Part shown: positions 33,494 to 64,000 of the stretch, in pieces
How the letters are laid out: each line of letters opens with the position of its first letter
How positions within the stretch are numbered: position 1 is the first letter of the stretch
NCBI GenBank assembly: GCA_016748015.1
Contig: JAAOMT010000144.1
Span: 67,809-131,808, forward strand
DNA length: 64,000 nt
Origin: Geosiphon pyriformis uo1
Taxonomy: Eukaryota > Fungi > Glomeromycota
Direction of reading: 5' to 3'
Translations under genes and position numbers: made by a program
The notes under the pieces: model-generated
The model's database searches: none
Told to the model about the DNA's origin: nothing
Seen by the model: only the letters and a program-made list of their open reading frames with translations

Positions 33494-36400
33494 TGAAACT
33501 GGTTTGGAAAATTGCAACATGCAATGCTCGTAGTATCAATGTCCCTGCCAAGCAGAAAAATGTTGTTTGTTAGCACAATAATTCTGGGAATATGATTTCT
33601 ATTGTTATGGAAATGAAATTGAGGTCTAATATTAGGTCTTGGATTATGAACAAGTTTGATGGGGTGAGGATATTCTCTTCTGGTTTGGACAATGGGATTT
33701 TTGGTGCTGGAGTGATGATCATTATGAAAAATTCTCTTGCTTGTCATGTTTCTAAGGTTGAGGAGGTACCTGGTCATTTTCTATCCATTTGGCTCTTTTT
33801 TAAGGGCAAGTTGTCAGTTGTGATTTTGGGCCTGTATGCAGATGCTTCTGCCAAGACTAGATTTGGCCAAGCTTGTGAAATTAACTCTCTTATTGCCAAG
33901 GCTGCTAATTCTTCTACGTTCATGGTTCTGGGTGGTGACTTTAATGAGGATGGATCTAGGAAGAGTGCTAGTCTTAAGTTCTGCTCAGATTTGGGGTTGG
34001 TCAACTTCTTTGGCAGACATCTTCTGGCCAAAGCTTCTACTTGGGGCAATTCCCAGGGTGTCGTAAAGATTATCAACTACATTTTTGTGAGCAAAAGTTT
34101 GTTATCTGCTTTGGCTGGTTATGAAATCTCTTCTGTTTCTGATTTCTTTGATACTGATCATAATGCTGTTCTGGTTTCTGTTGATTTGGATGGTTTCTTG
34201 GATTCCCGTCTTAATAGTGAACGCAAACAGGTCAATAAGGATAAGTGGAAATTCAAGATCAAAGATACAGATGCTAATAAGTGGTTATATTTTAGGGAAT
34301 GTTCTTTAGACAGGTTCTTGGGAAACATAGTTTTATTTAATAATGCAAAAGTTAATGGAGATTTGGATGCCATGTGGAGGATCCTTAAGGATGTGGTCTT
34401 TTACTCAGCAGATAAAGTGTTTTCTAGACGTTGGTTTAGCAAGTTTGATTGTTCAAAAAATAAGCTGTCTTTGAAGTTTTTCAGGTTGGAGTTGTTGGTG
34501 GCCAAGTTGATGAAATGTTTGAGTTTGGGTCAGGTATCAGATGCTGCTCACTTTCTCAAGGTGTGGTCTGATCTTGATAGTAAGAGGATCTCCAAAGTGT
34601 GCACAATGTTTGATGATAATGTGAGCAGGGTGAGCATTCTTCAACACTTATCAAGGATCAAAAAATTGTACCGTAAGTTTAAATACTACGAGTCTAGGGT
34701 GGCCAGAGATATTTCAATCAGAAGAGCAATAGACAAATGAATGGAAAACTTTAGCTTCAATAAAGGACTTATGATCAAGAGCATTTTGGATCGGCCATTC
34801 AAAAAAGTTGTGCTGAACCATTTGATATTGGACAATGAGTTGATTTTGGAGCCCAAGGAGGTTAAATCTGCTGTTGATAACATCATGGAAGGATGGACAA
34901 GGAAAAGAGTTGCTCTTGTCTTTCTGCCTGTTCGTTGGTCTAATCAATATGTCCCTCTGGACTATGTCAGTAATGATGCATTCTCGAAGGTCATGAATGT
35001 GATTAAATCAGATGAGTTTCTCTTAGTGGTCAAAGAACTGCCTGATGGGAAAGCTGCTGGCATGTCTGGTATTTCTAATGAGCTTTGGAAGCATGGAGAT
35101 GCTCAGGTTCTGGGTGGTCTGCTTAACATTCTTAATGTGTGCTTAAAGTTAGAGGCAGTTCTTTTACAGTGAAGACAAACCTGAGTTTTCATGATACCAA
35201 AGCCCTATGATTGGAAAGAGACACTTACCAATATCAGGCCAATAGCATTGATTGAGACAGCCAGAAAGATACTGTCTAAGATTTTTTTTGACAGAATATC
35301 TCTGGCTTGTAGTGTTTCTGATGTCTTTCATGGGGACAATTTTTCGGTTTTAAAGGGTACATCTACTCAAACTCTTATCTTTACCATTGGTTCTATTGTT
35401 GAAGATGCACTTGAGAAGAACAGGCAGCTTTGGCTAGTGCTTCAGGATATGTGGAAAGCTTATGACTCAGTTGGGTGGCCTCATCTGCGAAATAGTCTAA
35501 TTAAGATCAAAATGTGCCCCTGTTTTATTGAACTTTTTGGAAATATACACAATAATTGGTCCAATTGGATAATGACAGACTTTGGTCTAACTGATGGATA
35601 TGCTGTTCATAATAAGTTGGATTAAGGAGAAGTTTTTTCACTATTGTTGTGAAGGATCTTTTATGACCCTCTGCTTTGTGAGGTCAAAAGGCATAAACAA
35701 TTGTACGGCTATAGATTGGATTTTAAATTTTTTACCAGGACAGGTAGAGCTGACCCTAAGGCAGCAGAACCTCTTTTTTTGCAGCTAGTGCCTTTGTGGA
35801 TGACACTATTTGGGTTGAGAATTGTCTGGCGGTCACACAATGTATTTTAGACATTGTGAGTGAATTTTTTTCAATTAATGATATTGCTATTAACACAGAC
35901 AAGACAGTTGTCATTCCTATCAATCAAGGGGCCAGGAAGGTTTCTTTGTCAATTAGTGGCTCTAGAATTTCTATTGCCAAGAAGGGTGTGTCTTACCAAT
36001 ACTTGGGGATTTTTTTTTCTACAGATGGCCTATCTAAGCCTAGTTTGGCCAAAGCCCATTCGGATATCAGGTTCTTTTCAAATGTTGTGCTAAGGAAGGC
36101 TGTTATTGAGAAGCAATTTTTGTATTTGGTATCTGCTGTTTTCAACCCATAATTGGTTACAGGCTTTAATTTAGTTGTGTCTCTAAGAGTGTTTGTGAAA
36201 AGTGAGACAAAATGTTGAAGAAGGAGTTAAAGTTCAAGACCAATCTACCCAAGGATTTTCCAAATGAGGCTTTGTATTATCCGGAATTATACAGTTTAAG
36301 AACTTTTGAACAGGTGCTGACTGAGAATATATTGGCTGGCTTGGTTGTGTTCGCAAATGCTGGTGGAATCCTTGGTAAACTTTTTGAGCACAGAGCCATA

Positions 36401-38176
36401 GAGTTGTAGGCCACTAGCTGGATGCCCCGGCACCCTCTAAGAGTTCCGATCAATTTGCTGATTAATCCCACAAATTGCTTTTTGGCTGGTGTGACACATG
36501 TTCTCAAGTTGTGCAACCTCTCATTGGGTGGTAATCTGTCTGATGTTTTTCGGGCCAAGAATAGTATTGCAGTTTTAGACATGCTTGGTTTAGGGTCTTA
36601 TTTGTGTGTGGCAAAGTCTTTTAGGAGATACAGTATAGTGTTCGTTTATCAGCTTTTGGACTGCTGAGGTGCTTGTTTTGAGTGGAATACTTTTCACAAG
36701 TGGAAGAAGCTGGACCCTAGAGGCCCAGTTCCTGTTTGGTTTATCTTGTTGGTTGAATTTATTAAAGAAGGCGGTTTGTCGAATCATGTAACGTTGTTTC
36801 ATTGTTCAGCTCTCACTGATTCTCCTTGTGACTTCGGTTATGTTAATGAGCGTCTACTAAATTCTGATTTGAGTTCTGTGACCATCTATACAGACGGTTC
36901 TGTCAAAAGTTTGGGTTCGTTGGATGCTCGTGGTGGTGCTGCCGCTTACTTTCCAGATGCAAATGTTAGCATTGGGGTCAAGATGGATGTGTTGTTATCC
37001 TTAACTCTGGTGGAGCTACAAGCCATTGCATTAGCTTTAAAGTGTATGTCTACTTCTTGGTCTGTTGTTTTGTTTACTGACAGTCAGGTCTCACTAGACT
37101 TGTGCGAATCTGGCAGTGGTGTATTTAGTCCTGATTTTTATGATAAATGCTGGATTGAGAAGAAACATATTCGCCATGTCATCTTTAGTAAAGGCTTGTT
37201 GGTTACTTGGAACAAAGTCAAGGGTCATTCTGGTGTTGTTGAGAACGAATGTGCAGATTTCTATGCTGATGTCACTGTTGCCTCTAAGTTTTTTCTGCCC
37301 CTTGTGGTTTTTTATTGCTTTTTTAGAGTTAAAGACAGGCCTGTCTCTAGAAATGCTCGTTACATTGCCAAAAAATTGTTTAATGCTGTTCACTCTGTTG
37401 GTTGGAAGGCCAAATGTGTTGGTAACTTTATTAGAGTGGATCTCTGTTACTATTTTGATAAGACCAATACCTTTTGTGTTTGGCATCCTGATGGCAAGAT
37501 CAAATCTGGCTACACCAGTAGTGCATCAGTAACACTTCGGTCATATCTCATGAAAGCGCTCCACTATTGCTTACCAGTGGCCAAAAGGAAAAAATTGTAT
37601 GATCCGAGATATCCAAGTATTGCATACATTCAGTGTGGGTTGGTGAAGGACTCCAATCATGTGTTTTCCTGCGTTCATAATACCAATGTTCAGGAAACTT
37701 TGTTGTTAGATGCTTCTATGGAGTGAAATGCAGTGTTGGAAATTGCTGCCAATGGGAATGCAATTGCTAATTCACTGTGTAAGACTGGGTCTTCCATCGA
37801 CTTATTCACAGCGCTGGCTAAAAATTTTGTGTTGAAGGGCTGGGTGGCTGACACAGTAAGCCGTTTGGGTGCTGGTTTTGGTGGGGGTGCATTGGTTGTC
37901 GATTTCGTTTGTTGTTTTGCTGAGAGTCACAGGTCAGCCGTTTGGATACCAGCAGCTAAGTTGAGATCCTATTATAAGAAGCATAATCTTCTGCCATAAG
38001 ATGGCTCCTCCTTTTTGTCGGTGTCTAGTCTGTCTTCTTTGTGGTCTGCTGGGTCAATCCGAGATTTCGGTTTCAGGTTGGGTGTTTACATATGCTTTGG
38101 GTTGCACTCGTGCCTTACAAAATTGGACTTTGATTTCTTGAATGGTTTTCCTGTAGTGGGAGTTCTGGATGTGTAG
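33490..38176 (+). pseudogene. LINE ORF2 (AP endonuclease, reverse transcriptase, RNase H, C-terminal Zn finger), multiply disrupted
   Basis: APE motifs WKIATCN, GGDFN, TDHNAV. RT motifs RPIALIE, LQDMWKAYDSV, FVDDT, YLGI. RNase H motifs IYTDGS, ELQAI, FTDSQ, VKGHSG. Degenerate C..C..HVFSC. More than ten premature stops. Confidence 0.92.
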
Positions 38177-38645
38177 AGCTGCCTTGGTTGGCTCAAGTGG
38201 CCAGTCATGTGTAGAAAAAGCATGAGCCATGCTTAATTTAGATTCTGTGTATTCTATGTACTTAGGTAGTGGTTGGGCTGCACTCGTAAAATCTTTAATA
38301 AAAAAAAAAATAACAATAATTAAAATTTTAATAGTTTACTATTTAGATAATTAAAAATATTGCCAACATTCTTGACTTTAAATTTCAATAGATAATACTA
38401 TTGATTTCAGATTCTAAAGGTTTCAAAAAGTTAAAAGTAAAATCCATGATTCAATATTAGGCCTATATATTCAAGACTGATAGCTATTTAGTAATATAGA
38501 GTATTGGGGTTGTAATAAAATGACACTCGAGAAAGCATCATACAGGAAATAATAGTCTTATTTAGCAAATACTTAGTAAGATTGACTATTGATGTGTTAT
38601 AACCTATTTGGTAGTAATATAAAAAATTACATAAATAAGTTAGTA

Positions 38646-41503: not shown

Positions 41504-43180
41504 ATGTCGCAACCAGATGTTCGCGAAATCAGTCCGTTGATACAGTATCGACACAGTTACCCGACATATAGGACTTTACTTGATGATGATGATGCCATTA
41601 TGGCAAAATGCAAAAGGGGTTCCGAACCTTTCGATTACATTTCCTATTTCAACGATCAAACGGCAGAAGTTTCTTCACGCGAGCGAATAATATTATTCAT
41701 TGGTCTATGTTTGGCACTTTATTTGACGGCAATAGATCAAACCATTGTGGCAATCGCTCTTCCAAAAGTTTCCACGGCTTTTCACTCATTATCACATCTC
41801 TCCTGGGTCTCAACAGCGTATTTGCTAAGTTCAACCGCTGCCCAACCTATATTTGGTAAGTTGTCGGATATTTTTGGGCGAAAGTTGACGTTCCTGCTTG
41901 CCATAGACACCTATTTATTAGGGTCACTGCTTTCTGGCGCTTCACAAACCATGATCGTTTTGATTGCAAGTCGTGGTATTTCTGGAATTGGTAGCGGTGG
42001 AATCTTATCGTTGTCTAATATTATCTTGTCAGACATTATTCCAATGCGTGAGCGAGCAAAGTTCCAAGGAATTATTGGCGGTAAATTTGCAATCACTTCG
42101 GTCATTGGGCCATTGATTTGCGGAGTTTTGACAGATCACGTCGGATGGAGATGGGCTTTTTGGTTAAATATCCCAATTGGATTTGTTTCAACTTGGATTA
42201 CTGTGAATTTTTTAAACTTGCCCCATGTTTATGGTTCCCTACAAGAAAAATTGATGCGAATTGATTTTCGGGGTACATTTGTATTTGTACTAGCCATTTT
42301 TTCAATCTTATTACCTTTGAATTGGGGTGGTATGAAATACGAGTGGAATTCACCATTAATTATCTCACTCTTTTCCTTTGCCGCATTATGCATTCTGATC
42401 TTCATTTTCATCGAATCCAGAATTGCTTTCGAACCAATAATCGCCATTCGTATTTTTAAGATCTGGAATCCAGTGATCATCTTTATTTGTAACTTTTTAA
42501 TTGGAATCACTTTTTTTGGAATTGCATTTTATTGGCCACTTTTCTTTCAAGCTATCAGAAGCGAAAAGAAGATGGATACGGCTTTTCGAATAGTTCCATT
42601 GACCGTTGGATTAGTGAGCTTTTCTGTGTGTTCCGGTTTTGCCACGACGATTACTGGACATTATCGACCATTCCTAACCTTTGGTTATTCAATGGTTACC
42701 ATTGGAGCCTTATTGCTAAGCACCATCAAAGAAACTTCAAATGATGCACTAGCGTTCACTTTTATTTTAACTGCGGGTGCTGGATTTGGATCATCAATAC
42801 AAACGGCTCTTCTTGCTGCGCAAACATCCGTTGCGTTTAAGGATATCGCCGTGGTGACCTCTCTAACTACATTCTTTCGATCAATTGGTGGGATTTTTGG
42901 TGTCGCCATTTGTAGCTCGGCTTTCAATCATTTCTTGGCACAACATTTAGTCGGATTATTGCCTCCGGGTATTGAACTTGGAAAAGTGATGAATTCCATT
43001 GCTTACGTGAAGACTTTGCCGTTGGATATTCAGCAGCCCATAATTCACGCTTACGTACAGGCCTTGAATTTTGTGTTCCTTTTGATAGCACCTGCTGCTG
43101 CTCTTGCGGCATTTTTAAGTTTGTTTCTTAAACATGTCCCATTACGAACAACGTTAGGTCCGAGGGCTGACGAAACATAA
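41504..43180 (+). CDS. MFS DHA2 (14-TMS) transporter, intronless, 558 aa; paralog 2
   Basis: LTAIDQTIVAIALP, GKLSDIFGRK, IPMRERAKFQG, WRWAFWLNIPIG; colinear with 21075-22733. Confidence 0.95.
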   Translation: MSQPDVREISPLIQYRHSYPTYRTLLDDDDAIMAKCKRGSEPFDYISYFNDQTAEVSSRERIILFIGLCLALYLTAIDQTIVAIALPKVSTAFHSLSHLSWVSTAYLLSSTAAQPIFGKLSDIFGRKLTFLLAIDTYLLGSLLSGASQTMIVLIASRGISGIGSGGILSLSNIILSDIIPMRERAKFQGIIGGKFAITSVIGPLICGVLTDHVGWRWAFWLNIPIGFVSTWITVNFLNLPHVYGSLQEKLMRIDFRGTFVFVLAIFSILLPLNWGGMKYEWNSPLIISLFSFAALCILIFIFIESRIAFEPIIAIRIFKIWNPVIIFICNFLIGITFFGIAFYWPLFFQAIRSEKKMDTAFRIVPLTVGLVSFSVCSGFATTITGHYRPFLTFGYSMVTIGALLLSTIKETSNDALAFTFILTAGAGFGSSIQTALLAAQTSVAFKDIAVVTSLTTFFRSIGGIFGVAICSSAFNHFLAQHLVGLLPPGIELGKVMNSIAYVKTLPLDIQQPIIHAYVQALNFVFLLIAPAAALAAFLSLFLKHVPLRTTLGPRADET

Positions 43181-44497: not shown

Positions 44498-44522
44498 TTT
44501 AACTAACTTTGTTAAAATTGAT

Positions 44523-44700
44523 TATTATTTTTTATTTTTATTGCTTAACAAAGTGTGGTCCAACCATTATCCATGTACATAAAATTAAAACATCTTATAA
44601 TAAACACAGCTTATTTTTTTTCTGCGCATGACCAGTTATCTGAGCCAGTGAAGACAACACTGCGCACTATTTAAAAAATTTTACCATACGCATAGATTCT
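44523..44700 (-). mobile_element. Relic LINE 3' UTR and A-rich tail (third copy)
   Basis: The reverse complement gtcttcactggctcagataactggtcatgcgcag...tatgtacatggataatggttggaccacac...aataaaaataaaaa aligns with the LINE 3' UTR at 38177-38310. Confidence 0.7.
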
Positions 44701-47700
44701 GTCAAACATCTTATGAACACATAAATAAAAACTCAGCCCGCTAAAATGACCGGAATAATTCAGATAATTTATTCTAAGTATAACTTTATCTTCTAAAATA
44801 ATGATATATAATTTACCAACTGCATTGCAATCAACCATTTCAAACTTTTTTCATGTTTTACTCTCATCTTGATTATTAACAAATGTAAAAATTCTATAAT
44901 TTTTTTGACAACCAATTTAAAAAATCTGAAATTTCTTAAAGCTTTGCTATCCTAATTTTTTAACACAAAATTCTTTATTAGGACTATGTAAAGCTATTTT
45001 ATAAAGATTAAATTAGCATTTCGAAATAAGAACTCAAAATTATTGAAAGATTATAAGACCCCAAAAACACTAATTACAGAATTAGCTCATATCTTTATAT
45101 TTATAAATAATATTCAGTTTAATATTCATATTTGTAGCACAAATAAATACATAATTTAATAATTTGACTTTTTTACATTTAATATATGCAGACCTTAAGT
45201 ATTTAATATTATATACTTTCTTTTGAATTATAACTAATAGTTTACAATACAGTATTTTACTATATAAATATAAAAAACTGCTTTATATGTATTATTAGTA
45301 CTGGTTTTTATGTATAAATTAAAATATTATTCTAGAATTTTCTGTGCTAGTCTATATTTTTAAATAAAGTTTTAGTAAAATACTTTTTTGAATATCTTAT
45401 TTTTTATTAAACATAATTAATCATATTATAAACATAATAAATAAATTAATGAGCATTATTAAAAGTAAAAATGCTATTATAACTTTTAAGAAATCTTTTC
45501 AATATTCCATATAATAGTGTTTATTTAAAAAATAAAGTTATATTAATACTTAGTTTATTATTGTTCAAAACTTCTAGATAACTTTTTAATTTAATTAAAT
45601 TAACAATTAGATTTTTTTTCAAGATTTTTTTAATAATCTTGTATTTTTTAATTAATATTTATTGCAAAATTTTGGTCTTTTAATTCTTGTTTTCTTTAAT
45701 AATGTATTTTAATATTAGTATTATGGCATATTATTTTTTACTTAAATTATTTTTATTTTCTAATTTTATTATTATCGTCTTATTCAAATTAAATTATCAT
45801 TATAATAATTTAAAATGATTTTTATGTTAAATTATAATTTATACAGAATATTTTTTATTTAAAAAAATTTTATTAAATTTAAAATTTTAAATGTTTTTAA
45901 ATTTAAATTTAATATAAAATATTAATAATTAAGCTTGTAAATAGTTGTTTGAAAAAATTTAATTTTTTCAATGTTAAAAACAATAGTTTTTTTTAATTAA
46001 TGTATATTGTTTAAAAATTTTTCTAAAAAATATTGCTCTTGAAAACTATTTTTACAATTAATTAAAATATAGTTGCATTTCAAAATAATGTATCTAATAT
46101 AAATTAAGCTTAAGAAATATTTTAAAATTAATTAAATATCAAGAAAAAAAATAAAAAATTTAAAAATAGATAATTAAAAATTTTTTAATAATTATGTTTA
46201 TTTAAAAAGATATTATTATAAAATTATAAATTTCTAAATTATTTAAAAATCTAAATAACTTTTTAAACCTTTTAAAATTTCTATAATTTTTTAAACTTTT
46301 AAGAATGTAAAATAATGTTAAAATAATTCTGTTTGTTTTTAACAGATGATAATATTTATAATATTTAAAATGACTTGAAAATAATTAATGTTAAAAATTT
46401 TTATTTAATTATATAGTAAAAAATTTCAATTTTTTTTGGTTTTTAAACTTTAAAAAAGTTATATGAAATAATTTAATTTTAACTTACATATTTTTATTTT
46501 TACAATATTTATTTTGAATTTATTAATAAAAACTAGGTTTAAATATAAATATTCAATTAAATTTTTTTAAAATTTATTTAATGAATATAATCCAATTATT
46601 ATCTAATACAATATAACAACCAAATATTTAAAATTAAACATAAATTATAAATAATCAGTTACTTAAACCAATTAAGACAATATTATGTATTTATTTCAAT
46701 AATAATATAACTATTCAAATCTGGGAAAAATAAGCAAAGCTTATATGTTTCATAAACAATATTAAAAGTTTTAACAACATTAAATAAATAAATATTATTA
46801 TTAAATAAAATTATTAGTAAACCATTGATAAATTTAAATATAATAAAATTATTACATATTAAATTATTTTTTTTATATTAATCTTATATTTAAACTTATA
46901 TAATTATATACTATTATAGTAATTAATTATTAAATATTAGATAGTTTAACCAGTTTAAAAATTAAAGATATTATAAACAATTAATCTTTAAAAATAAAGT
47001 TTTTATTTAAAATTATATAAATATTAATATTAATTATATTAAAAAACAATATCTGTAATATTAATAATAATAAAATACACATATTAATTAAAAATATTTA
47101 ATAAGCAATATAAACATTTAACAATTTTTTGTATAATATATTAATAATAATATATATAAATAATTAATTAAATAATTTTATCTTATTATAATATAAATAT
47201 AAAATACTTAAATATAAATAATTATATAATTTTTATAATATATATATGCAAACAAATTATTAATTTTTTTGTAAATTTAAAAATTATATAAAATTTAAGA
47301 TATTAAATTATAATAATACAAACTTAATTTATAATATTAATTATATTTATATTAATAATATTAACATAAAAATTAGTTTTCTAATATATATATAATAAAT
47401 TAATTTATAAATATTATAAACAAAGTATTTAATATTGTCAAATATTATTATATTATAAGTTTTAATAAATACCAAAAAAAAATATAATATTATTAATAAA
47501 TATATTTATATATTTATTTTCAAAATTCTTTAAATGGCTTTTAATCTTAAACTAAATAATACTTAAATTGTTTTTCTTAATAATATTAAATATGTAGTAT
47601 TTTTTTAATTAACAATAATTATAAAAGTCTAATAACAACAGATTTTCTTTAAAAATATAAATATTCAAAGAAATTTAATTGTTTAAATTAATCAAAACAC

Positions 47701-48087
47701 TACTAAAAAGCAGAATATATTTAAAAGCTAAAATAATTGTTTACAATTTAGTTATTGTTGATAAAATTAAACCCAAAATATTATTACCAATTTCTAATTT
47801 ATAATTTGCAAAAAATGTAAATATACTGCTTATTACTTTAATAAATAAAGCAAAAAAAATATATTTAATTATATTTTTCTCTTTTTTTTTTATTTTTATT
47901 ACAGGTTTTACGAATGAAGTCCAACTGCTATCTAGTACATAGAACCAAACTAAGTGGAACTAACTAAATGCAGCTCACGCACAGACTACATGTGGTCAGC
48001 CACTCAGGCCAAACAAGGCAACATTATGCACTTATGTTGACAAAAGCACTACCATCCAAACCAGAGAAAAATTGACACAATTTGTGT

Positions 48088-49093
48088 TGTTATCTGAGTA
48101 GAAAAACTGATCCAAAGTTATGAAGAAACATGACCAAAATGTGACATAACACAGAATAGCACGCAATAATGTTGGATAACACGTTATAACTTAGAATAAT
48201 GCAGAATAATGCATTATAATATAGGATAACATATAATAACACCAGATAACATATTATAACATAGAATAACTAGTAATAACATAGAAAAACGAAGCAATTA
48301 CAGAAATAGCAAAGCAATAGTTAGCAATAACAAAACAATTAGAAGTAATCCTATAGAACAAAAAGAATGTATAAAATGAGTAGCTATAGAAGTTAGAAAG
48401 ACATCCAGAGAGAAAATTAGACTTTCAGAAGTCAATTAAACTCTCAGAGTCAATTAGACTTGCAGGTTATAATTATTAAATACTCCTCCTTTCAAAGATA
48501 GTTGCTATCAACTAAAATGGAATTATATCAATAAAATATCTTTTTAATTCTTCAAATCTATGTTATTATCCATTACTTAATCTACTGGCACAATAGCTCT
48601 TAATCACGGCTATTGACAAAACACTTATTTCTTATTTTTATTTTTTTTATTTTTTTTATTTTCTTTTATTTTCTTTTATTTTTTTTTATTTTTTATTTTT
48701 TTTCTCTTTTAGAGTGGCAACATAAGAAAATTGACTGTTTGGGAATAGACTTCATGATAGTCTGGTAAAAGAGGGAGGCTCCCCCTAGGTTTTAGATATT
48801 AACATTATCTTAATAGCTTACCAGAAAGGCGAAAAGATAATGTCAAACCCTAACAACTGCACTCGTTAGCTCGGAGAAAAAAGCTCATATTTACAGAAAA
48901 CGTTGCAATCGACGAAAAACAAACTCTGTGCCTTATAACCAAAAAACTCAATGGGTAAATTCACATTCAGGAATAGACCTTCAGAGACTGATAATCAAGA
49001 CTAAGCCAACAGAATTATACAGAAGACGCATCCCCAATAATTGAGAGCACCAAATGTTACCAGTTCCATTACCCACCAAGTTTATCCATAACA
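48088..49093 (+). repeat. 5' LTR
   Basis: Direct repeat of 50644-51660; contains a 10-nt ATAAC-core subrepeat array at about 48145-48290 and a T-rich tract. Confidence 0.92.
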
Positions 49094-49095
49094 TT

Positions 49096-49113
49096 TGGTG
49101 CTCCCTGTGAGGT
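49096..49113 (+). other. Primer-binding site, complementary to a tRNA 3' end resembling elongator tRNA-Met
   Basis: TGGTGCTCCCTGTGAGGT lies 2 nt after the LTR; its reverse complement is ACCTCACAGGGAGCA-CCA. Confidence 0.75.
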
Positions 49114-49224
49114 TATAAAATCCACAGAAACAGAGTGCTCCAAAAATTCACAAAAGTGAAAGACCAAGAGAAAACAACAGAAAAATCACTTAGGATTCAC
49201 AAAATCCTTATTTTAGCATTTCCT

Positions 49225-50040
49225 TTAAAAAACTCGTTAAATTAAAACTCTGATTATTCAAAATCTGATCATTAAAACCCTGAACATTCGCAACTTACCT
49301 TTGATAAATTCGTTAAAAAAAAATTGTTAAAATTAAAAACTCCGATTATTCAAAACCTGATCATTAAAACCCCAAACATTCAAAACTTACCTTTAATAAA
49401 TTCATTAAAAACTCATTAAATTAAAACTCCGATTATTCAAGACCCGATCATTAAAAACCCAAACATTCAAAAACTACCATTAATAAACTCGTTAAAACTT
49501 GTCAAATTAAAACTCTGATTATTCAAAACCCGATCATTAAAATCCCGAACATTCGCAACTTACCTTTGATAAATTTGTTAAAAAAAAATTATTAAAATTA
49601 AAACTCCGATTATTCAAGACCTGATTGTTAAAACTCCAAACATTCAAAACCTGATAATTCCAACCCCGCTATTGTATAAAAAACTTACCTTCGATAAACT
49701 TGTTAAATTAAAAACTCTGAAAATTATTCGAAACCTGATAATTCTAACCCTGCTATTGTATAAAGAAACTTACCTTTAATAAAACTTGTTAAAACTCTGA
49801 TTCTTCAAGACCCGATAGTTCAAAACCTGAACATTTGAAACCCGATAAATTCCAATCCCACTAGTATAGAAAAAAACTTACCTTCGGTAAAATTCGTTAA
49901 AATTAAAACTCTGACCCGATCATTCAAAACCCAAATATTCAAAACCCGATAAGTCTAACTCCGCTATTGTACAAGGAAACTTACCTCAGATAAAACCCAT
50001 CAAACCTCTAGAAATTCAAAACTCCGATTATTTAAAGACC
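49225..50040 (+). repeat. Degenerate tandem array (about 75-120 bp units) inside the LTR element
   Basis: Recurring aaaactc(c/t)gattattcaa(a/g)acc(c/t)gatcattaaaacc..aacattc..aacttacctt..ataaa, about 9 copies. Confidence 0.85.
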
Positions 50041-50441
50041 CATTGGAAAAATTCCAGAAAAAAAACTACCCAGATTCATACTTATCTGTGCAAAGACTGC
50101 CTTTTTTTGTGCCAAAAGTCAGTGTTGAGAAAAAAATTTGAGAATCAGCAGTACCAAAATTGATCAACAAATTATTAAACTTACTTGATGGCCCCGAGTC
50201 ACAATCCACTTCCACGCATCATATATTTGAACTCCGAAGAAGATGAGCCAATCAGCGAAAATTGGAATCAGAACTTAATCCCGATTCAAACTCTACTAAT
50301 GACGATGATGACAATTCAAACTCCACCAACAATGACAACAATGATTCAAACTCTGCTTCAAATACCAAACAATATATCATGCTTCTAGATTTTACAATGG
50401 AGCAGAAATTAACTCAATTCAGTGATAATAATGAGAGCATT

Positions 50442-50583
50442 ATGGCTGAACGTGTGCATAATACGAATGCAGAATTTGAAATTAGATATCTTGGACAGAC
50501 CACTATAGTTTTAAAAAAAAAAAAACACCATTCATGTACCAAAATAGATTTAATAATAACAATAGAAATTATGGCAACAACAT
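50442..50583 (+). pseudogene. dUTPase N-terminal remnant in the LTR element
   Basis: MAERVHNTNAEFEIRY...CTKIDLIITIEI resembles the trimeric dUTPase start (P.RAH.TDAGFDL; motif 1 AGxDL), with D>N and G>E changes explicable by G>A. It is truncated before motifs 2-5. Confidence 0.5.
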
Positions 50584-50643
50584 TGAGACAAAAGAGAAAT
50601 TTAGAAGATTTCGCAGGAGCTCAATTCTAAAAGAGAGGGATAA

Positions 50644-51660
50644 TGTTACCCGAGTAGAAAAACCGATCCAAAGTTATGAAGAAATGTGACCAAAACATAA
50701 CATAACACAGAATAGCATGCAATAACGTTGAATAATACATTATAACTTAGAATAACACAGAATAACGTGTTATAACATAGGATAACACAAAATAACATAT
50801 AATAACACCAGATAACATATTATAACATAGGATAACTAGTAATAACATAGAAAAATGAAGCAATTACAGAAATAGCAAAGCAATAGTTAGCAATAATAGA
50901 ACAATTAGAAATAATCCTGTAGAGCAAAAAAAATGTATAAAATGAGTAGCTGTAGAAGTTAGAAAGACATCCAGAAAGAAAATTAGACTTTCAGAAGTCA
51001 ATTAAACTCTCAGAGTCAATTAGACTCACAGGTTATAATTATTAAATACTCTTCCTTTCAAAGATAGTTGCTATTAACTGAAATAGAATTATATCAATAA
51101 AATATTCCTTTAATTCTTCAAATCCATGTTATTATCCACTACTTAACCTGCTGGCACAATAGCTCTTGATCATGACTATTAACAAGACACTTATTTCTTA
51201 TTTTTATTTTCTTTATTTTCTTTATTTTCTTTTATTTTCTTTTATTTTCTTTTATTTTTTTTCTTTTTTTCTCTTGTGGAGTGACAACATAGAAAAATTG
51301 ACTGTCTGGAAATAGACTTCATAATAGCCTGGTAAAAGAAGAAGGCTCTCCCTAGGTTTTAGATATTAATATTATCTTGATAGCTTACCAGAAGGGTGAA
51401 AAAACAACACCAGACCCTAATAACTGCACTCATTAGCTCGAAGAAGAAAGCTTACATTTATGGAAAATGTTGTAATCGACGAAAAACAAACTCTGTGCCT
51501 TATAACCAAAGAACTCAATAGGTAAATTCACATCCAGGAATAGACTTTCAGAGACTGATAACCAAGACTAAGCCAACAAAATTATGTAGAAGACGCATTC
51601 TCAATAATTGAGAGCACCAAATGTTACCAGTTCTATTATCTACCAAATTTATCTGTAATA
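50644..51660 (+). repeat. 3' LTR
   Basis: Direct repeat of 48088-49093, preceded by the polypurine tract AAAAGAGAGGGA. Confidence 0.92.
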
Positions 51661-54600
51661 GTATCTACCAAACCTAACAGCAAAGAATTTCATAACACCA
51701 AGCATATAAATAACACCAGCTAACAACCTGAAATTGACACTATTAGACAAGTCAGAAACCAAACTATTATCTCCAACCAAGCTGACCTTTTCCATATTCA
51801 CTTTATGTTTGGCTCTAATAGATTATATCTTATCACAATGTAACTTCACTACAAATCTGACGTATTTAACAAGAGCTAAAACAGCTTTTTTTTTCCCCTT
51901 AAAAACTAAGACAGCTTCAGCATACCAATCTTTTATTACAAAATCTTTGCAAATAGCCATATAAAGACTCACATCCAAAAAACACAATGAAGGCAAAAGC
52001 AAAATAGCAGATGTAAATAGATTCGAAAAACCAGACATTGACTTCCATTTTTCAGTAGCTTTAACCAAAATGTCCCCATGCAGACCAGAGTTACCAGAAC
52101 AGGTAAAAACATGGTCAGATAACTTTACCTTGTTACACATTAAGCACAACACTCCAGAGTAACTCTTCTTATACAATCTTTTTCTAATTGCAATCAGCAG
52201 CTGTCTATATACAGCCTTTATCAAATATGTGCACAGATTGGCTGATTTCCTACTGGTAAACCCAAACAGCATATGTGAATCAGAGTGCCAAACTGCTGCA
52301 GTAGTCTTCCAATCTATTTTTCTAATTATAACATCTAAAACAATATCAAAACTTAGACCAGCCTCCCAACAAGTATGGCATATTGACTGGTATAAGTCTT
52401 GAACAAAATGACGAATATTGCCAAATACAGCAAATCCTTCAGCAACCAGAAATCTTTTCCAAATTCCAACTGACAAAAAAAAAAATAAAGAAGTCGCCTT
52501 ATTAACTAATACATCAGTCTTAATATTATCTACTACACCTAAATGCCCCTTAACCTTTACCCACTTAATTGAAATATTTTTACTTATAAGGAGATTGTCT
52601 ATATGCAATATTTTGATTCAACATTGGTTATGGAAGTCAGGCATAGTGAAAGAGGTCTCAAAAGTGCATGCATCAATTACAGATTGACTATCTGAGTATA
52701 AAACCACTAAGCACGAAGATGGAATACATTTTAAAGCTAATACTACAGCCTGCAATACAGTTAAAGTAGAGGACAAAAACCTATCTATTCTAATCCCAAT
52801 ATCTGTATTTGTAGCCAGAAAGTATACAGCCACTTCACTCATTACCTTAGTAGAACCAACATATTGTAAGGATTCATCTGTATAAATCTCAATGCAATCA
52901 GACCACACCTCTAGTAAACTATTACAAACATCAGAAAATCCATCAAAATCCAAAACACTTAGCACATTTTTTCCACTAGCAGAAGCAGTACCGACCTCCA
53001 AAGAAACAGATTTGGTTATAAAATTAAATGTTAATGAGAACCAATAAGGCACTGGGCCTCTTGGATTCAACTGCTTTCAATGATAGAATGTCTTCCAGTT
53101 CATCATCTTTCCTTCCTTATTAAGAAGTCTGTCACCAAATGCAACACCAAATTATTTCAATGACAAAACAGATTTGAAATACAAGGACTGACCCAAGATG
53201 CTAGACATCGGAAAGTTACTACACCTATGAAAAGCACAAAGCAGATTGTTTGCCAATAACAACTCATTATTCAGAAAAATTTTCACCATCCCAGCCAGAA
53301 AATTGTTTACAGAACTAACATGCAATCTGACTGGAAATTGTAAAGGATCCAGAATAACCCACCTCAAAACTTGTAAATTCAAAAATTTATAATCAAATAA
53401 GCATCCCAGAATGTCATGGCTATTGAAAAATGAGATCAGTAATACCAGCTTTTCTTCAGACTGTACTTGCTCAAAGGACTTCAAACTATATAAAGAAGAA
53501 TAGTACAAGACCTCACTGAGAAAGTCACGTGGCAAATTAGCTTTGGCTTTAAGACTTTTTCTAATCATAATATTCCACTTACAATACACAGCTAAAGAAA
53601 TGAAACTGAATTGTATATGATAACCAACTATGGGTTGCAAGACTGCTAACACCAAATAACAGAATTATTTGTTTGTAATAGCCTTTTTTAACACTATATT
53701 AGAAAAAAACTTGATATTCACATGAGCTTGAGCCAAACTGAGTTTAGAGAAACCCTCAGTTGACAAAAATATGCCTAAATATTGGTGTGGCTCTTCTTTT
53801 TTAGCAATTGAAATTGGCAATCTATTAATTAATAGTGAGGCATTCTTAATTTTTTGATTGATTGAAATAGCTACCATTTTATTAATATTAATTAAAATGT
53901 CATTAATCACAAAAAATTCACTTGCAATGTTCAAAATATACTGCATAGAAGCATGACTACTACCAATCCAAATTGTATCATCAACAAATGCACCAGCAGC
54001 TAAAAAAGAAGTTTTTTTTCCACTTATTTTAATCCTGCCAGACTTAGCTACGAACCTAGAATTAATCCTGTACCCACATAAGTGTTCATGCTTTTTTATC
54101 TTACACAGAAGTGGGTCATTAAAGATCTTCCAAAACAGTGAAGAGAAAACCTCTCTCTGATCTAACTTGTCATGTATCTTGTAGTCTTTTAAGAGCCCAA
54201 AGTCTATCATTACTCTGTTAACCTGGTTTTCATGGATGTTACCAAAAAGTTGGATAAAGTGTTTACATATTTTTATGTGATACAAGCTTATTTGCAAATA
54301 ATGCCAGTCTACTAAATCATAGGCTTTGTACATATTTTGTAGTACCAATTAAAGCTCTCTGTTTTTTTCCAGAGCATTTTTAACAACCAAACCAATAGCA
54401 AAAATATGAGACTGGGTGGAAGTACTCTTCAACACTAAAAAGTTGTCACCACAAAGAACATTAAACTTACTACAAGCCAATAATATCTGATCATATAGAA
54501 TCTTAGATAGTATTTTATGTACAGTATTGACTAATGCAATAAGCCTAGTATTTGTTAGAACACAATTTTATTTGTAAGGTTTTGGAATTATAGAAATCTA

Positions 54601-57600
54601 TGCCTTTTTCTAGGGATTAGAAACTACACCCTGACTTAAATACAAATTCAATAGCCTCAAAAGACAGGCCAAAATCTTTTTACCACAATGCTTCTAAAGT
54701 TTATTAGGTATCCCTGACAATCCAACAGCTTTATTATTTGGTAGGTTATCAACAACCAAAGACAATTCCACCATACTGATTACATCCATTATACCAGAAA
54801 AAGCATTATCATTTACATAATCTAGAGGCATATATTGTCAAAACCAAAGGTCAGGCATTTTTGGAAAAATAGATTATTTTCTTGTCCACCCTTCTATAAT
54901 TTCATTGACCTTGAGCAATACCTCTTTAGGCTCAACAACCAGCTCATTATCTACTACTAAGTAATTCAAAACTACTTTGCAAAATGGATGTTTTAAGATG
55001 CTTTTTATTATTCTCCCTTTGTCAAAACAAAAATTTTCCATATAGCAGTCAATTACCTTTCTTATAGCAGTATCTTTAGCAATCTTAGACTCGCAATATT
55101 TGGACTTCCAATACTTCTTTCTTATTACTGACAAATGCTTAACCAACTTTACTGAGCTTACACCAGTCAAAATTATGCTATCAATCTTGGAAGCTTCAAC
55201 ACCATCAATAGCCAATCAGACCTTAATAAGACAGTTGAAATTCAATAGATTACTGGAATTCCAATATTTCAAAATCTTTGCAATAAGCTGTTCCAATTTA
55301 AAGAACTTCAAAGATTGTTTATTCTTTAAACAGTCACATTCACCATACCAAATCTTAGAGAAAACTGTATTGGCAGCTTGTACTATGGCCTCTTCCAGCA
55401 TTTTCCACATTGTATTTAAGTCATCGTTGTTTTCTGCCTCTTCAAACATATCTGACCTAACCAACAACTCAGCAGACACATGGTCCTTAAAGTCCAACTA
55501 CTGAATATAATTCACATTCTTTAAATTGAATTTCTATTGGTCTCTGTTGACTTGCTTGTGAATGCTAATAAAATAGACATCCAGTAATCCACCCAGACCA
55601 ATTAAAACTGAAACTGATTTATGATCTGAATTAAAAAACTCAAACACATCATTGACTTTATGCAATGCAATAGCAGACACCAAATTTCCACTCACTAGAA
55701 TAAAATCAATCACTCTCTTAACACCTTTAGAATTGCTCTAAGTAATTGCTTTGGCCAGCAAGTGCCCATTAAAAGTGTTAACTAGGCCCAACCCCAAACA
55801 AAACTTGAAACTTGCACTTTTCTAAGATCTATTTTTATTAAAGTCATCACTCAAAATCACAAAAGAGCTGGAATTAACTGCCTTGAAAATCATAGAATTA
55901 ATAACAGCAGCTTGACCAAAATGTGTGCCAACAGACACACCAGTATATAGACCCAAGATTATAACTGAAAGCTTGTTTCTGAAAAAAGGTGCACAGAGAT
56001 CAACTGACCAGGAATCTCATCTACTTTTGAAACATATTAAGCCAAAGAAGTGTTTATAATAATGCAATACCATTGCCTTAAAAACCAACATCCAAACCAG
56101 TAGTGAAAATCCAGACACCATCAAACTTACCCATAATCCAAGGCCTAATATCAGATCTCAATTTTGTTTTAGTAACAATAGAAATCATATTACCCAAATC
56201 CTTATGTCAACAAACAATGTCATCTTGTTTAGCCAAATTCATCATACCTCTAGTATTACATGTAGCCACCCTCCAAACAAGCTCATTTATTGATGCAAAT
56301 AATGTGTCAAGGAGCCTAAATTCACACACAACAGATCTAACTTTCCCAAAATCAAGTCGATAGAAACTTCAAGAGCTATCATTTTAAATTCTAACTCACC
56401 AACTTTAGAAGTCAGAACTTTTGAACTACTTAAATCCAAATCAACTGTTTTTTCTTCAATCTTGGGAGACGAAGGAAGAAGAGATGGCCATAGAATATCT
56501 AAAATCATATCAGCATCTGATATTGATAACACAAAGATAAAGACATCTGGATGTTCAACTTTGAGAACAAGCACCAGAAGCACCAGCTCCATACTATTTA
56601 ACTTGTGCAAAACATCTGATACTTGATCAGCTAACAATTCCAAAAAGCATTCTAATAAAGCCAGATAATTGTTAATTGAAGAACTATCATGATCGGCCAG
56701 AGTATCCCCTTTATCACAGACAACACCAAGAGAAGAAAAACCAGCTCCAGAGCCAGAACCAAAATGAGAGCCACCAAAAGGAGAGGCAATTGAAATTATC
56801 TGTGCCCAAAACTTGCCACCAAAAGCAGCAGAACAAAAGATAGGAACATTCTTCTTTGTGTACAGCTTTACTAGCTGAAGATGATGTACATCTGAAGTGA
56901 CCTTCTTAATAAACCTTAAGGATTTAGCATTGGGTGCAATAGTTGCATTACACTCTATAGCAGAATGATTAAAGTGTCCACAATTCTCACAGCAAACCAG
57001 ATCTAATCTAGCCCAAAAAAGTTTAACACCACCAAAAATTGGCTCAGTTTGATATGCAGATTCAAGACACTCCTCAGATTCAAAACCAACTACAGTGCAT
57101 CAAATTTGGTTGCCAGTATTAAGTGAGCAATTGATGATACAAGTTTTGCCACCAATCTTGTCCAAAAGAGTGTCCAGATTATGAGCAGTTATACCCATAG
57201 ACAAAGTAAACAACAAAACCCTAAACCAATCCCTTGATGCTCAGGTATTGTGATCTCTTTCAGCCATAGCCACATGTACCAAATCTTTACCAATTAGAAA
57301 GGACCATCTAGCAGCCAAAAGTTCAGTCTGATCTGATTTAGTAAATTTTACCATAGTCTTTTGCCACAACCCAATCAGTTAAACTTTGATTGACTTAATT
57401 TCACCAAACTCAGCTAAAGCAGTAATGATCATTTTCTTTGGTGTGTTCATAAGAATTTTTTTAATGACCACAGCCCAATTTGAATGGATTTCTTGTTTCT
57501 TAAGATTACTGTTTACATCGATTCCTTTTTCTCTGGCCAATGATGTGGTTATTTCTATGTTTTTTTCTGAAGTGAAGATAGATTAGATGATCTCTTCAAA

Positions 57601-60600
57601 TTTTGAGGGAGTAGTAGTCTCCCCAAAACCATTGACTAATGAAAATAATTTTCTGATAAATTGAGTTTTAGCTGTTACTAATTTTCCATCCACAGCTAAT
57701 AGATTAATGTCCAAAGTAAAAAATTTTTTTACTAATACTTCAACCTAAGTTTTCACAATTTTAGGATCAATTTACTTTTTGTCAAGAAAGAAGTTGAGAG
57801 AAGGAGGGAGAGAGCCCATTTTTTCATCCATTTCAAAGTCTATAACTTCAACAGGAGTACTACTAATTAAACCAATATTGCTTTTTTTAGCTTTGGAAGT
57901 AAAAGCTGCTAAGCCAAGGAGAAAACCACCATTTGAGCCCACTACAGAGCGACCAGTCTCATTGTTACTGAATTCACTGTCCATATTCGAATACATGTCT
58001 TCACTGATATCAGATTTGACTAACAAAATTTCCTTTTCATCTCCAGAGTGTTTTATATTGCCAACAAAAATCTTCTTTTTTTAAGAGAAAATACCACCAA
58101 CAGAGCCATGAAAAGCACTTTTTGGGCTTTTTTTCATAGACATACTGCTATTTGAAGCAGCCTTCAGGCTCACTACAAAGGGGTTATTAGCTTGAGAAAT
58201 GTTGAAAGTAATATAACAATGAGATAAAAAACAAAAACTTCTTTTTCAAAATTTGTTTTTTGGAGAATTTGGACAAAGGAGAGAAAGAAGTTTTTTTTTT
58301 TCTTTTTTTAAATTGCTTTGTATTGTTGTTTTAATTATAAAACTATTTATTAAAGAATTAATTAGATTAAAATCCAAACACTTCTTAAAACTGGTATTTT
58401 TTTTGAAATTATTTTTATTAAAATATCTTTTAAAATAATATATAAACTTTTATTTATTATCTTAATTATAAAAAAAAAATTTTTATTAGCTTAATTTAAA
58501 TATATAATTAATAAAATATTAATATAAAAACCTAAAATAAAACAAAAAACTTGTTTTTAAACAGCAATTTAAGCAACAAAAGTTAATTAGTTATTTTAAA
58601 TACTTTTAAATATAATGACTTAAATTATTGTTTATAATAATTGTCATGTTATAACTTAAATAATCAAAGTTTAAACCAGAAATAAAGACTTATATACTAT
58701 TAAACTTGTTTTTAATTTAAAACTTAATTTAACTTTTTAGTTTTATCTTAATAATAATAAATATTAGATTGTTTATTTTCTTGTTTTATTTAATAAAAAT
58801 TTTTTATTTAATAAGATTGTTTATTCTTTTTATATTAGACAACTTACTAAAAAAAATACAAATATTTTATTTTTAGAAAACAATATACTAAAATTTGGTA
58901 TTATTATATTAATAAAATTCAAAAGCTTATAAATACTAATTTTAAAATTATTTAATTGCTTAATAACATAAACAAAAACATTAAAATCTGCAAATAAAAC
59001 ACCAAGTATTTTTTTAAAAAAATTTTTTAAGACCATATTAAAATTGAGAACTGGATTTATAAAAAAAGCAGTATTTTAAAAAAAAATAACAAAAAAAAAT
59101 AAAGTATTTAATTTTTCAGATATTTATAAAACTTGATAAAAAAAAAAGCTTCAAACTTTTTTTTAATTTGTCTAATTATAAAATTGCAAATAAAAAGATA
59201 TTATTAGAGAAAATATTATTTAAAAATAAAATTTGTTTATTACTATTATCAACAAATCAATTAAAAAAGATTATTTTAAGACAAGATAACAAAATTTTTT
59301 ACAATTTTTACAATAAATTAAGTTTAATTTAGTCCAAAAAAAATCAACTCTATTATATACAAAAATAGTACAATAAATCTAATTTAATGTTTTTTTAAAA
59401 TCAAAACAAATTGTTATATATTAAACTTTAATAATAGTAGCAAATATATAATTAATAACACATATTTTTTTATTAGTTTTTTTCAAAAAATCTCTAAAAA
59501 TATATATTATTATATTTATAAGCAAAATAAACAACAATAATTCTTAAATAATTAGATTGTATAATTTATATTAGTTTTAATTATATGTATTAAATTTTTG
59601 CTAATTAAAATTAATAACTTAAATATTAATAGATCAATTTGGTCTAATTTAACAAATTTTATAACTGTTTTTTGCCATAGTTTAATAAGTTACTAAACTT
59701 AAATAAAACTGAAACAATTACATTCTTAAATATATTTATAAAAATTTTCTTAATAATTATAGCTTAATTTATTTAAATTTTTGTTTTTTAGATTAATCAT
59801 TATTAAGATCTTTTTTTTAATTATTAAAGTAATAATTTTTTTAAATCTATTAATTAAAAAAAATAATTTAATAATTAATAATTTTGTTATAGCAGATTTC
59901 TTTTAAATTTTAATATGTTAATATTTAAAACATAAAATTTTTTGATAAATACTTCTATTTTTTTCTTAAAAATTTTAAAATTAATCTACTTTTTTATTAA
60001 AAAAATAATATAATAAAAAGAAAAAGTTATTTCTTCACTTTTAATTAAAATTAATTATAACTAATAAAATATTTTCTTGTTTATTAGTATTTATTTTTTT
60101 ACATTTAGTATATTTGTTTGAAAATTAAGAAAACTTTTATATTTATTATCTATTTTATATTTATTATTAACTGTTTAAAAATTTACCAGTTCTTTTATTA
60201 AGTCTATTTTTATGTTTACAAATTACTTATAATCTGATATAATTTACAAATAACTTGAACTCCAAATCTATTTATTACTTAAGAGCTTAATATTTTTAAT
60301 TAATATTTTTAATTTCTGTAAAAAACTATTACTGACTAAGTTAAATGCAATATTTTTAGCTATTTTTTTTTGTTATAATACCATTTGTGATAGCTATTGA
60401 ATTTAAGACAAAAAATTTATATTGTATGAAATATTAATAATAATACAAAAAAAACAAAAAACTTTTTTTTCAAAATTATGTCTTTGGAAAATTAAATATA
60501 ATAAAAAAAAATTTTTTTAATTAAATTTGTTTAAAAAATGATAACATAATTAAAAAAGTCGAAGTTAAATTTAATGCTAATAATAACAAAAAATTACGAA

Positions 60601-62022
60601 TGTAGTTTTTTAGAATTCTTATATGTTTATATATAATTATTTTTTTATTTTGCAATTTTATAAGTTTAATAAAAACTTTAAAAATATTTATAAAAGATTA
60701 TCAATATATATTAATTTTAATTACTTAAAAAACTATAAATATCATATATAAAAAGTAAATATTTTTTAATATTATATAATTATTAACTTATTAAATAAAT
60801 ATAAAACAAAGACTCTTTTTTTATTCATATTTAAAATTATATCTAAAGCAAAAATTAAAATTAAAATTTATCTTATTTTTATTAGTTTTTAATAATAATA
60901 TTATATAAAAAGCTCTTTTAACAATAAAAATAATTAAACAATATTTTGTTAAAGTGTTTTTTTAAAATAATAAAAAAATAAAACAGTTTTTATTTTTGGT
61001 TCAAAGTTTTTTTTTTAAGATTTTTCCAGAGTAATTTATTAAAAACAGTCTTAATAATAATAATATTATTGTCAAAAATTCTAGAATTTTTAATTACAAA
61101 CTAATAATCAAGTTATTGTTTTTTTTTTTTTTTATTGTTGTTTGGATAATTAAAAAAGCCAAAATAACCAAAAAGCAACTTTTTTTTCAAAAATATTTCA
61201 AATAAAACTTTTAAAAAATAAAAAATTAAGTTTTTTGGATATTTTTTAAAATACTTTGATTATCTTAAAGTCTATTTTTTTTCTTTAAAAAATAAAAAAT
61301 TAATTTTTTTGTTTTTAGTGTTTTTACCAGTTTTGTATTAATAGTATTAATTACAATATCTAATTTTATTTTGAATAATAACAATAGTAACATATTTGTT
61401 ACAGCTAATTTAGATTAATATTAAATTATATTGTTTAATACAATAGATTTTGATTTTTTATTACTAATTTTAAAAGTAAAACAAGTTATATTTTTTACAA
61501 ATAATTTTAATTAATAATAATAATAATAATATGTTATTTAATTACAAAAATTATTTTTTTTTAAAAAAATTCTGTTAATTTTGGTGGTATTTAGAAAAAA
61601 ATTACTAATTGTTAAAAGTTTTTTGAATAAATGATTTTTATTTTGGCTATTTTTAAATTGTAAAATTTTCTGTAATTTTTGTTTTGCTTTTGGTATTTTT
61701 AATAAAATTATCAATATTAAATTGAAATTTGCTAATTTATAACAATATATTATTGTGTATTTAAATTTTTTGTAGTTTTTGATGCTGTTTTTGCTTGTTA
61801 ATTAGTAAAAAAACAGTATTGAATTTTTTTAATCAATTAAAAAAAGTTATTATTTTGTATAATACTATTGTAGATTAAAATAATATATTAACAAATAGCA
61901 AAAAAAACAAGTATTGAATAATAAAAAAATAAAAGAAAATTTGACTTTTAATATAAATGTTGACACTCAGTTTATGTCTTTAAAGACTTAAAAAGTTTTT
62001 CTGATTCTGTTATATTTAAAAC

Positions 62023-63486: not shown

Positions 63487-64000
63487 TCATTCAATATTAC
63501 TAGGGCCCAAAGTTTTTCTTAATGGGACATGAGTGACAAATAAACTAACTAGAGTGGCAAACCCAGCCGTGGGAACACCAATTTTAAATACATTTTGCAG
63601 GGCAATTACATAGGCATGAATTATAGGGTCTCTAATATCTTCGGGTAAGGTCCTTACAAACTCTATAGAATTCATGACTTGATCCAGGGGAATGTCTTCA
63701 GGTAAAAAATTTAACAAGCTACTTTCTAAAGAATTATTGAAAATCGCCCCACAAATGGCAAGTCCAAAAATACCACCAACGCTCCGAAAGAAGGTAACTA
63801 ATGTGGTAACAATTGCGATATCTTTATAATTCACAGATGATTGTGGTGATAAGAAGGCAGTTTGTAAAGAACATCCAAGACCAGCGCCGACAAGCCACAT
63901 ATAAGCTATTGCTTGAAGCTGATTTGTAGTCTCATTAAAAGTTCCCATCAATCCGCAACCAACGGCAATTGCTGCATACCCAAAAGTAATCCAGCCACGA
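63487..64000 (-). CDS. MFS DHA2 transporter paralog 3, 3' portion (runs off the window)
   Basis: RGWITFGYAAIAVG..GAGLGCSLQT..SVNYKDIAIVTTLVTFFRSVGGIFG..VMNSIEFVRTLP..HVPLRKTLGP, colinear with the other two paralogs. Confidence 0.93.
   Translation of the reverse strand, partial: RGWITFGYAAIAVGCGLMGTFNETTNQLQAIAYMWLVGAGLGCSLQTAFLSPQSSVNYKDIAIVTTLVTFFRSVGGIFGLAICGAIFNNSLESSLLNFLPEDIPLDQVMNSIEFVRTLPEDIRDPIIHAYVIALQNVFKIGVPTAGFATLVSLFVTHVPLRKTLGPSNIE

Follow-up and report, generated by a model that had tools for sequence, protein, structure and literature searches.

A deleted, high-copy long terminal repeat (LTR) retrotransposon, located at 48088–51660 of a 64,000-nt stretch of the Geosiphon pyriformis genome (the whole of which is hereafter called the window), was found to have decayed by C:G>T:A changes as pure as those that repeat-induced point mutation (RIP) leaves, with no bias towards CpA. 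This combination probably represents a variant of methylation-linked repeat mutation. The decay is RIP-like in outcome, yet it is not to be classed as RIP. Within its coverage, which did not extend to Venice et al. 2020, Bewick et al. 2019 or the paper on the species' genome, a literature search retrieved no report of the pattern in Geosiphon.

Substitutions between the two LTRs

Alignment of the two LTRs over 1006 columns revealed 98 transitions and only two transversions, a ratio of 49:1, both transversions (48695 and 48709) bordering a poly-T tract. A preliminary description of this DNA had counted about 29 substitutions and no transversions over the opening 330 nt of the LTR pair, which was borne out: all 29 are transitions, 15 at CpG and 14 at other sites (6 CpA, 5 CpT and 3 CpC). 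Its estimate that about half of the changes are non-CpG held for this CpG-rich first third but not for the whole LTR where, with C/G taken as ancestral, 27 transitions fall at CpG and 71 of the 98 (72%) elsewhere (28 CpA, 20 CpC and 23 CpT). Similarly, the term transition-only proved adequate for post-insertion comparisons such as that of the LTRs, but not for older ones, which are rich in transversions; in the internal tandem units of the element, one such older comparison, 10 columns showed transitions and 6 transversions or mixed changes.

Deamination at CpG alone is insufficient to account for these differences, as had been proposed, because 43 of the 98 changes lie at CpC or CpT and cannot be hidden ancestral CpGs. 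For these 43, the probability of finding two transversions or fewer is 3e-6 if two thirds of changes are transitions, and 0.003 if four fifths are. Only calls at CpA may conceal an older CpG, and the family majority exposes at least two of these, at 48513 and 49018. Thus, the non-CpG excess did not vanish when ancestral CpGs were allowed for, one of the checks that the preliminary description had named, the CpC and CpT changes being immune to it.

Outside the poly-T tract, the altered fraction of the available C:G sites was 27/46 for CpG, 27/107 for CpA, 20/63 for CpC and 20/118 for CpT, corresponding to an estimated 0.54, 0.16, 0.21 and 0.10 changes per LTR copy, respectively. CpG is therefore the fastest-mutating context, the other three running at about a fifth to two fifths of its rate. 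No preference for CpA was detected in the LTR pair (27/107 versus 43/190 for CpC and CpT combined, p=0.67), and CHG and CHH sites were altered alike (12/59 versus 57/237), so that CHG-specific targeting is unsupported. TpCpG is the RIP-like target of basidiomycetes; here it is the least-altered CpG (1/10), and its targeting is likewise unsupported. Within 48088–49086, ApCpG is saturated (16/21) and TpCpG rarely altered (1/10).

Both strands of both LTRs are affected, with changes at 25 C and 20 G in the first copy and at 25 C and 25 G in the second. Strand-coordinated bursts of mutation are a feature of RIP. Neither LTR showed an excess of strand-coordinated runs or clusters (P 0.12–0.55 in runs tests, 0.12–0.88 over all tests), a kind of signal that many rounds of mutation could blur. 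The composite RIP index was below zero in all six regions computed, ranging from −0.02 to −0.81.

The direction of change was assessed against other members of the LTR family. A total of 6329 contigs of run X1 were placed on the LTR and defined 251 variable places, of which 241 are transitions. In 14 of 15 informative rows the first LTR carries T/A and the family majority C/G (p=3e-4); informative rows are those in which the LTRs differ and the family majority is unlike the first LTR, and they come from a set of 40, with 212 further rows outside it. It is possible that X1 derives from the very sample that was assembled, and the family majority is not necessarily the ancestor of this element; read with these limits, the family majority supports LTR substitutions running from C to T. 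The evidence leaves aside runs X2, X3 and X4, of which 3, 2 and 0 contigs, respectively, were placed on the LTR. A shorter LTR variant was noticed in the X2 and X3 contigs, which skips 48784–48924 and 48959–49039 and shares a 26-nt replacement, the second skip being present in X1 too. An exact 30-nt LTR pattern matched 0 loci in metagenome contigs.

LINE copies, neighbouring genes and the setting of the element

The window is AT-rich DNA that holds intron-bearing genes (kinases, Cdc42 and MFS transporters), the one deleted LTR element and two decayed long interspersed nuclear elements (LINEs). LINE1 (31500–38333, plus strand) retains reverse transcriptase (RT) and RNase H sequences and has an observed/expected CpG ratio (CpG o/e) of 0.24; the heavily decayed body of LINE2 (51661–58100, minus strand) has a CpG o/e of 0.09. 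The RNase H piece of the LINEs has 85 relatives, each of them from G. pyriformis, as is every one of the 120 listed among at least 266 protein-level matches of the RT piece, so that a cross-species control found no relative outside Geosiphon; these matches make this fungus the likely source of the window. A LINE protein scan of metagenome contigs confirmed 0 of 71 candidates.

Non-CpG change in the LINE family was quantified at Gly2, Pro1, His1 and Cys2 codon positions, where codon structure rules out CpG. At these sites, C>T-type changes outnumbered matched transversions by 291 to 5 in 3286 residues of 120 LINE copies (70% conservation cut), and by 177 to 14 in a second set of 62 sequences (2005 residues). 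Replacements that codon structure assigns to CpC, namely Gly>Asp/Glu and Pro>Ser, numbered 190 against 5 transversions. Changes of the reverse, T>C type amounted to 215 of 19914, with K>R making up 135 of them. In a young pair of copies, P0015 and P0088, 51 of 511 residues differ and, by hand reading, 50 of the 51 are explicable by C>T or G>A.

The recurrent G>E and D>N changes noted earlier were recovered family-wide, as D>N and G>D/E. The proposal that the premature stops of the LINEs arose by transitions was upheld in part. Two of the three stops of LINE1 and 9 of the 15 of LINE2 fall at family Trp positions, and the third of LINE1 falls at Arg; the other six of LINE2 lie in family V, H, R, C, L or K columns (0.30–0.70 conserved), several of them being probably frameshift edges. 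By contrast, family Gln positions yielded no stop (CAA>TAA or CAG>TAG) in the aligned stretch of either element.

CpG depletion in the window concerns the LINEs and not the genes. As had been stated, the neighbouring genes keep CpG and intact frames, with a CpG o/e of 0.77–1.04 in four genes, including an MFS transporter gene (21075–22733, plus strand; 0.97) and its paralog (41504–43180, plus strand; 1.04), both of which served as controls; the short last exon of Cdc42 has a value of 0.51 (9 CpG). At fourfold-degenerate sites of genes, C occupies 53/328 positions before G and 142/829 before other bases, whereas before G it is nearly gone from LINE1 (6/211) and LINE2 (2/137). The decay was thus rightly called repeat-focused as regards CpG loss. 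For its non-CpG part the same may hold, as compositional proxies hint: the repeat spectrum implies an equilibrium GC of about 9%, and GC is 31% at fourfold sites of genes, about 30% in Cdc42 introns (557 nt) and 27–34% in gene flanks. No recent duplicate of a host gene is present in the window, the MFS paralogs being only 64% identical in nucleotide sequence.

Five intergenic blocks (5500–7800, 23000–25000, 28000–31400, 44500–48000 and 58200–62000) have a GC content of about 12–15%, a CpG o/e of 0.12–0.64 and a GpC o/e of 1.6–2.5. These are possibly end products of the decay that affects LINE and LTR elements, or of an extension of that decay into flanking DNA. At 63490–64000, on the minus strand, the end of the window truncates a third frame that by eye resembles MFS transporters. 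At 16500–17239, two 360-nt copies, 100% identical, surround a gap of 20 N and are likely an assembly artefact.

The anatomy of the LTR element, all on the plus strand, was read from the sequence. The 5′ LTR (48088–49093, TGTTA...TAACA) is 89% identical to the 3′ LTR (50644–51660), whose terminal 7 nt are three transitions away from those of the 5′ copy. Two nucleotides beyond the 5′ LTR there is a primer-binding-site-like motif that starts with TGG (49096–49112); no tRNA gene with which it might be matched was found in the 64-kb window. It is followed by a tandem array of about nine units of 80–115 nt (49227–50060) that retains CpG (CpG o/e 1.15 in 49001–50000), a remnant open reading frame (50247–50630) and a polypurine tract (50629–50640) preceding the 3′ LTR. 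The remnant frame gave zero Pfam matches itself, and shares 53–54% identity with segments of two proteins of Geosiphon in which a dUTPase Pfam domain is present; the element would belong to Ty3/Gypsy.

The element is nested within the 3′ end of LINE2, whose span is 47862–58100. Matches to LINE proteins extend as far as the right edge of the LTR element, and on its left the severed LINE2 3′ end (47862–48087, minus strand) matches 38117–38333, the 3′ end of LINE1, at 65% (score 159 against a shuffle maximum of 112). GTGT at 48084–48087 and GTAT at 51661–51664, one transition apart, form a probable 4-bp target-site duplication, which with three of four letters agreeing is weak taken alone; these flanks are also compatible with a decayed CG-centred target site. 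The nesting and these flanks indicate that both LTRs likely derive from one insertion and, thus, that the differences between them likely arose in place.

Competing explanations

Here and below, statements on published work apply to the accessible part of each source. The supplement of PMC9963178 lists two Geosiphon DIM-2 homologs (14231 and 17547), reciprocal-best and carrying signatures of BAH, C5-methyltransferase and the active site, together with one DNMT1 (1384); Geosiphon is not among its 15 RID1 entries, as counted in that paper's dataset. According to the same work, DIM-2-like genes occur in Endogonales and in Glomeromycota, whereas RID occurs in Pezizomycotina only; PMC8298701 states the opposite, that the clade of arbuscular mycorrhizal fungi has RID. 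Two other Geosiphon C5-methyltransferases, 12536 and 12541, are labelled DNMT1, short and unplaced, and, judged by eye, 12536 begins like the Gigaspora "RID1" entries (PMC9963178).

We consider it probable, with a good deal of reserve, that the repeats are methylated in all contexts by DNMT1 and the DIM-2 paralogs and then decay by gradual, poorly repaired deamination. DNMT1 and the two DIM-2-type enzymes would methylate repeat heterochromatin in every cytosine context, and methyl-cytosines would deaminate to T singly, site by site, with scant repair. The process would be gradual and mitotic, and its non-CpG component would leave unique DNA untouched; for 49:1 to be reached, either T:G repair would be weak or the transversion background sufficiently low. 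Neurospora DIM-2 methylates "in all dinucleotide contexts" whereas the RIP that it mediates falls mainly at CpA (bioRxiv 115501), and non-CpG methylation by the Geosiphon enzymes may be similarly broad. Because the LTR contexts lack a CpA preference, DIM-2 methylation fits the data and the DIM-2 mutators described do not. Of the two causes that the preliminary description had offered, non-CpG methylation or active deamination, the former thus provides a fitting cause, with two listed DIM-2 homologs, while membership in RIP is unsupported.

Several observations weigh against gradual decay of methylated repeats. The transition/transversion ratio (Ts/Tv) of 49 is far above the 2.8 of wheat transposable elements (TEs) with all-context methylation (PMC2996936), and above the 0.93, with no C>T excess, of DIM-2-methylated H3K9me3 domains of Neurospora in mitotic mutation accumulation (bioRxiv 2022.03.13.484164). 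Non-CpG C>T changes occur at no less than 32–71 times the per-site transversion rate, a purity hard to reach passively. TCG is rarely altered (1/10, against 24/34 for the remaining NCG; p=0.001), a result not predicted by simple CpG decay. In Phycomyces, which possesses DIM2 and DNMT1, non-CpG methylation is nevertheless low (CG 3.4%, CHG 0.5%, CHH 0.9%), and in the Rhizophagus methylome CpG methylation alone was called. As to the LINEs, copies share history and the counts are not independent events. Transversion-type differences make up 269 of 1601 changes, mostly conservative, in an alignment with a 60% cut (24 of 85 matches in small clusters excluded; columns below 60% conservation and gapped or low-identity windows masked), and account for 7 of 55 differences of LINE1 and 14 of 88 of LINE2 from the family majority, which blurs the picture of pure transitions. 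So does the direct comparison of LINE1 and LINE2 (528 transitions, 418 transversions), which is saturated and no control for recent mutation. These transversion-type differences may represent divergence between active subfamilies.

Since the purity so exceeds that of wheat TEs and Neurospora heterochromatin, an active, RID-independent, RIP-like mutator remains a live rival, although we regard it as unlikely. It would recognize homology or heterochromatin and, with either a DIM-2 paralog or some partner deaminase as its enzyme, convert C to T in any context through many weak rounds. The 49:1 ratio is nearer to that produced by the Dim2 mutator of Zymoseptoria tritici, which is mitotic, repeat-focused, more than 95% C>T and tied to the DIM-2 enzyme needed for non-CG methylation (PMC8016269), than to the passive systems above, and Geosiphon has two DIM-2 homologs. 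Moreover, DIM-2-dependent RIP in Neurospora is possible without RID and reaches adjacent single-copy DNA (bioRxiv 115501); here, blocks of 12–15% GC flank the elements. However, both of the DIM-2 mutators considered here are CpA-specific, with more than 98% of C>T changes at CpA and CpG spared in Z. tritici (PMC8016269), whereas in Geosiphon CpG is fastest and CpA equals CpC and CpT. The link to DIM-2 is experimental in Z. tritici, while in Geosiphon we infer it. The lack of strand runs also speaks against such a mutator, though many rounds would blur them, as does the high copy number that the LTR family attained.

It is improbable that the spectrum is instead genome-wide, dominated by C>T and poor in transversions as a result of weak uracil repair and reduced translesion synthesis, with ordinary CpG methylation added and repeats differing merely in being unselected. 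Rev1 is reported to be missing from all Glomeromycotina (bioRxiv 2025.09.02.673565), a loss that might lower transversions in Geosiphon, and the intergenic blocks, in which no element is recognizable, come close to the 9% GC equilibrium. However, Geosiphon retains Pol zeta according to the same report, and introns, gene flanks and fourfold sites stay well above 9% GC, although selection or GC-biased conversion could keep them high. Fourfold sites of the MFS paralogs show 57 transversions and 28 transitions at 135 sites, contrary to such a spectrum, though these sites are saturated and are no control for recent mutation.

A sequence-specific process, either an APOBEC/AID-like deaminase acting on cDNA or ultraviolet (UV) damage at dipyrimidines, is very unlikely. 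A weak trend towards a 5′ pyrimidine was observed (45/161 versus 25/136, p=0.056; for TpC, 30/103 versus 40/194, p=0.11). However, the differences are post-insertion and affect both strands of both LTRs, which cDNA editing is not known to produce, and non-dipyrimidine RCA sites are altered as often as dipyrimidine ones (13/55 versus 57/242, p=1.0), so that both are largely refuted. Finally, CpG deamination alone with ancestral CpGs that are now concealed, or an artefact of sequencing or assembly, is hardly credible: C is the majority base of the family at 48513 and 49018 and the first third is CpG-rich (15/29), but the CpC and CpT changes of the LTRs, the CpC-type replacements of the LINEs, the predominance of transitions in family contigs and the intact neighbouring genes all contradict it.

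Relation to RIP and significance

The near-exclusive C:G>T:A change by which RIP is recognized is present in Geosiphon, in 98 of 100 LTR substitutions and by 291 to 5 at the matched LINE codon sites. The decay is not canonical RIP, given its lack of CpA preference; the absence of strand runs and the negative index further speak against the membership in a RIP-like defence that had been suggested, as may the lack of Geosiphon among the RID1 entries of PMC9963178. That the system lies outside Dikarya stands, the host being a member of Glomeromycotina. As in the RID- and DIM-2-dependent RIP of Neurospora and other Pezizomycotina, changes are near-pure, both LTRs are hit and reading frames are broken by stops (bioRxiv 115501, PMC12543289, PMC4352252); unlike it, there is no preference for CpA (or CpT), the index is negative, strand runs are missing and the PMC9963178 dataset has no RID entry for the species.

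Other systems share some of these traits. In the CpG-type TE decay of basidiomycetes and Tuber, attributed to methylation followed by deamination, CpG is the most mutated site and a DNMT1/Masc2-type enzyme is present (PMC4352252), but in Geosiphon 72% of LTR changes are non-CpG and TpCpG is the least-hit CpG. In wheat, all-context methylation lifts transitions in TEs above those of introns and leaves transversions unraised (PMC2996936), as would be the case here, at a much lower Ts/Tv. Repeat hypermutation has been claimed for another early-diverging fungus, Zoophthora radicans, as putative RIP (PMC11105155); that claim rests on a CpA-based composite index, which is negative in Geosiphon, whereas the present case rests on aligned copies. 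RIP-like signatures went undetected in Gigaspora and Mucoromycotina (PMC8647823), and a screen of 1,239 genomes found strong ones, with CpA preference, in four ascomycete classes only (PMC12543289); Geosiphon is not named in the main text of the latter or in 12 of its 19 supplement files. The accessible parts of PMC11952901, PMC13443276, PMC13297926 and PMC11258239 contain no statement on the pattern in this species. Screens of this kind would miss the decay of Geosiphon repeats, because it is free of CpA bias and scores below zero on the RIP index.

These results predict, from sequence, dense CHG and CHH methylation in a Glomeromycotina fungus and name two candidate enzymes, the DIM-2 homologs 14231 and 17547. 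They bear on the question of whether mutagenesis by DIM-2 predates RID, and dating by LTR divergence likely overstates the age of elements in the Geosiphon genome. More tentatively, and against our expectation, duplicated DIM-2 might constitute an enzymatic, context-free, RID-independent repeat mutator, older than RIP or parallel to it and possibly shared with Endogonales. If so, a DIM-2 mutator would kill transposons, give rise to the intergenic blocks of 11–15% GC and escape RIP screens based on CpA.

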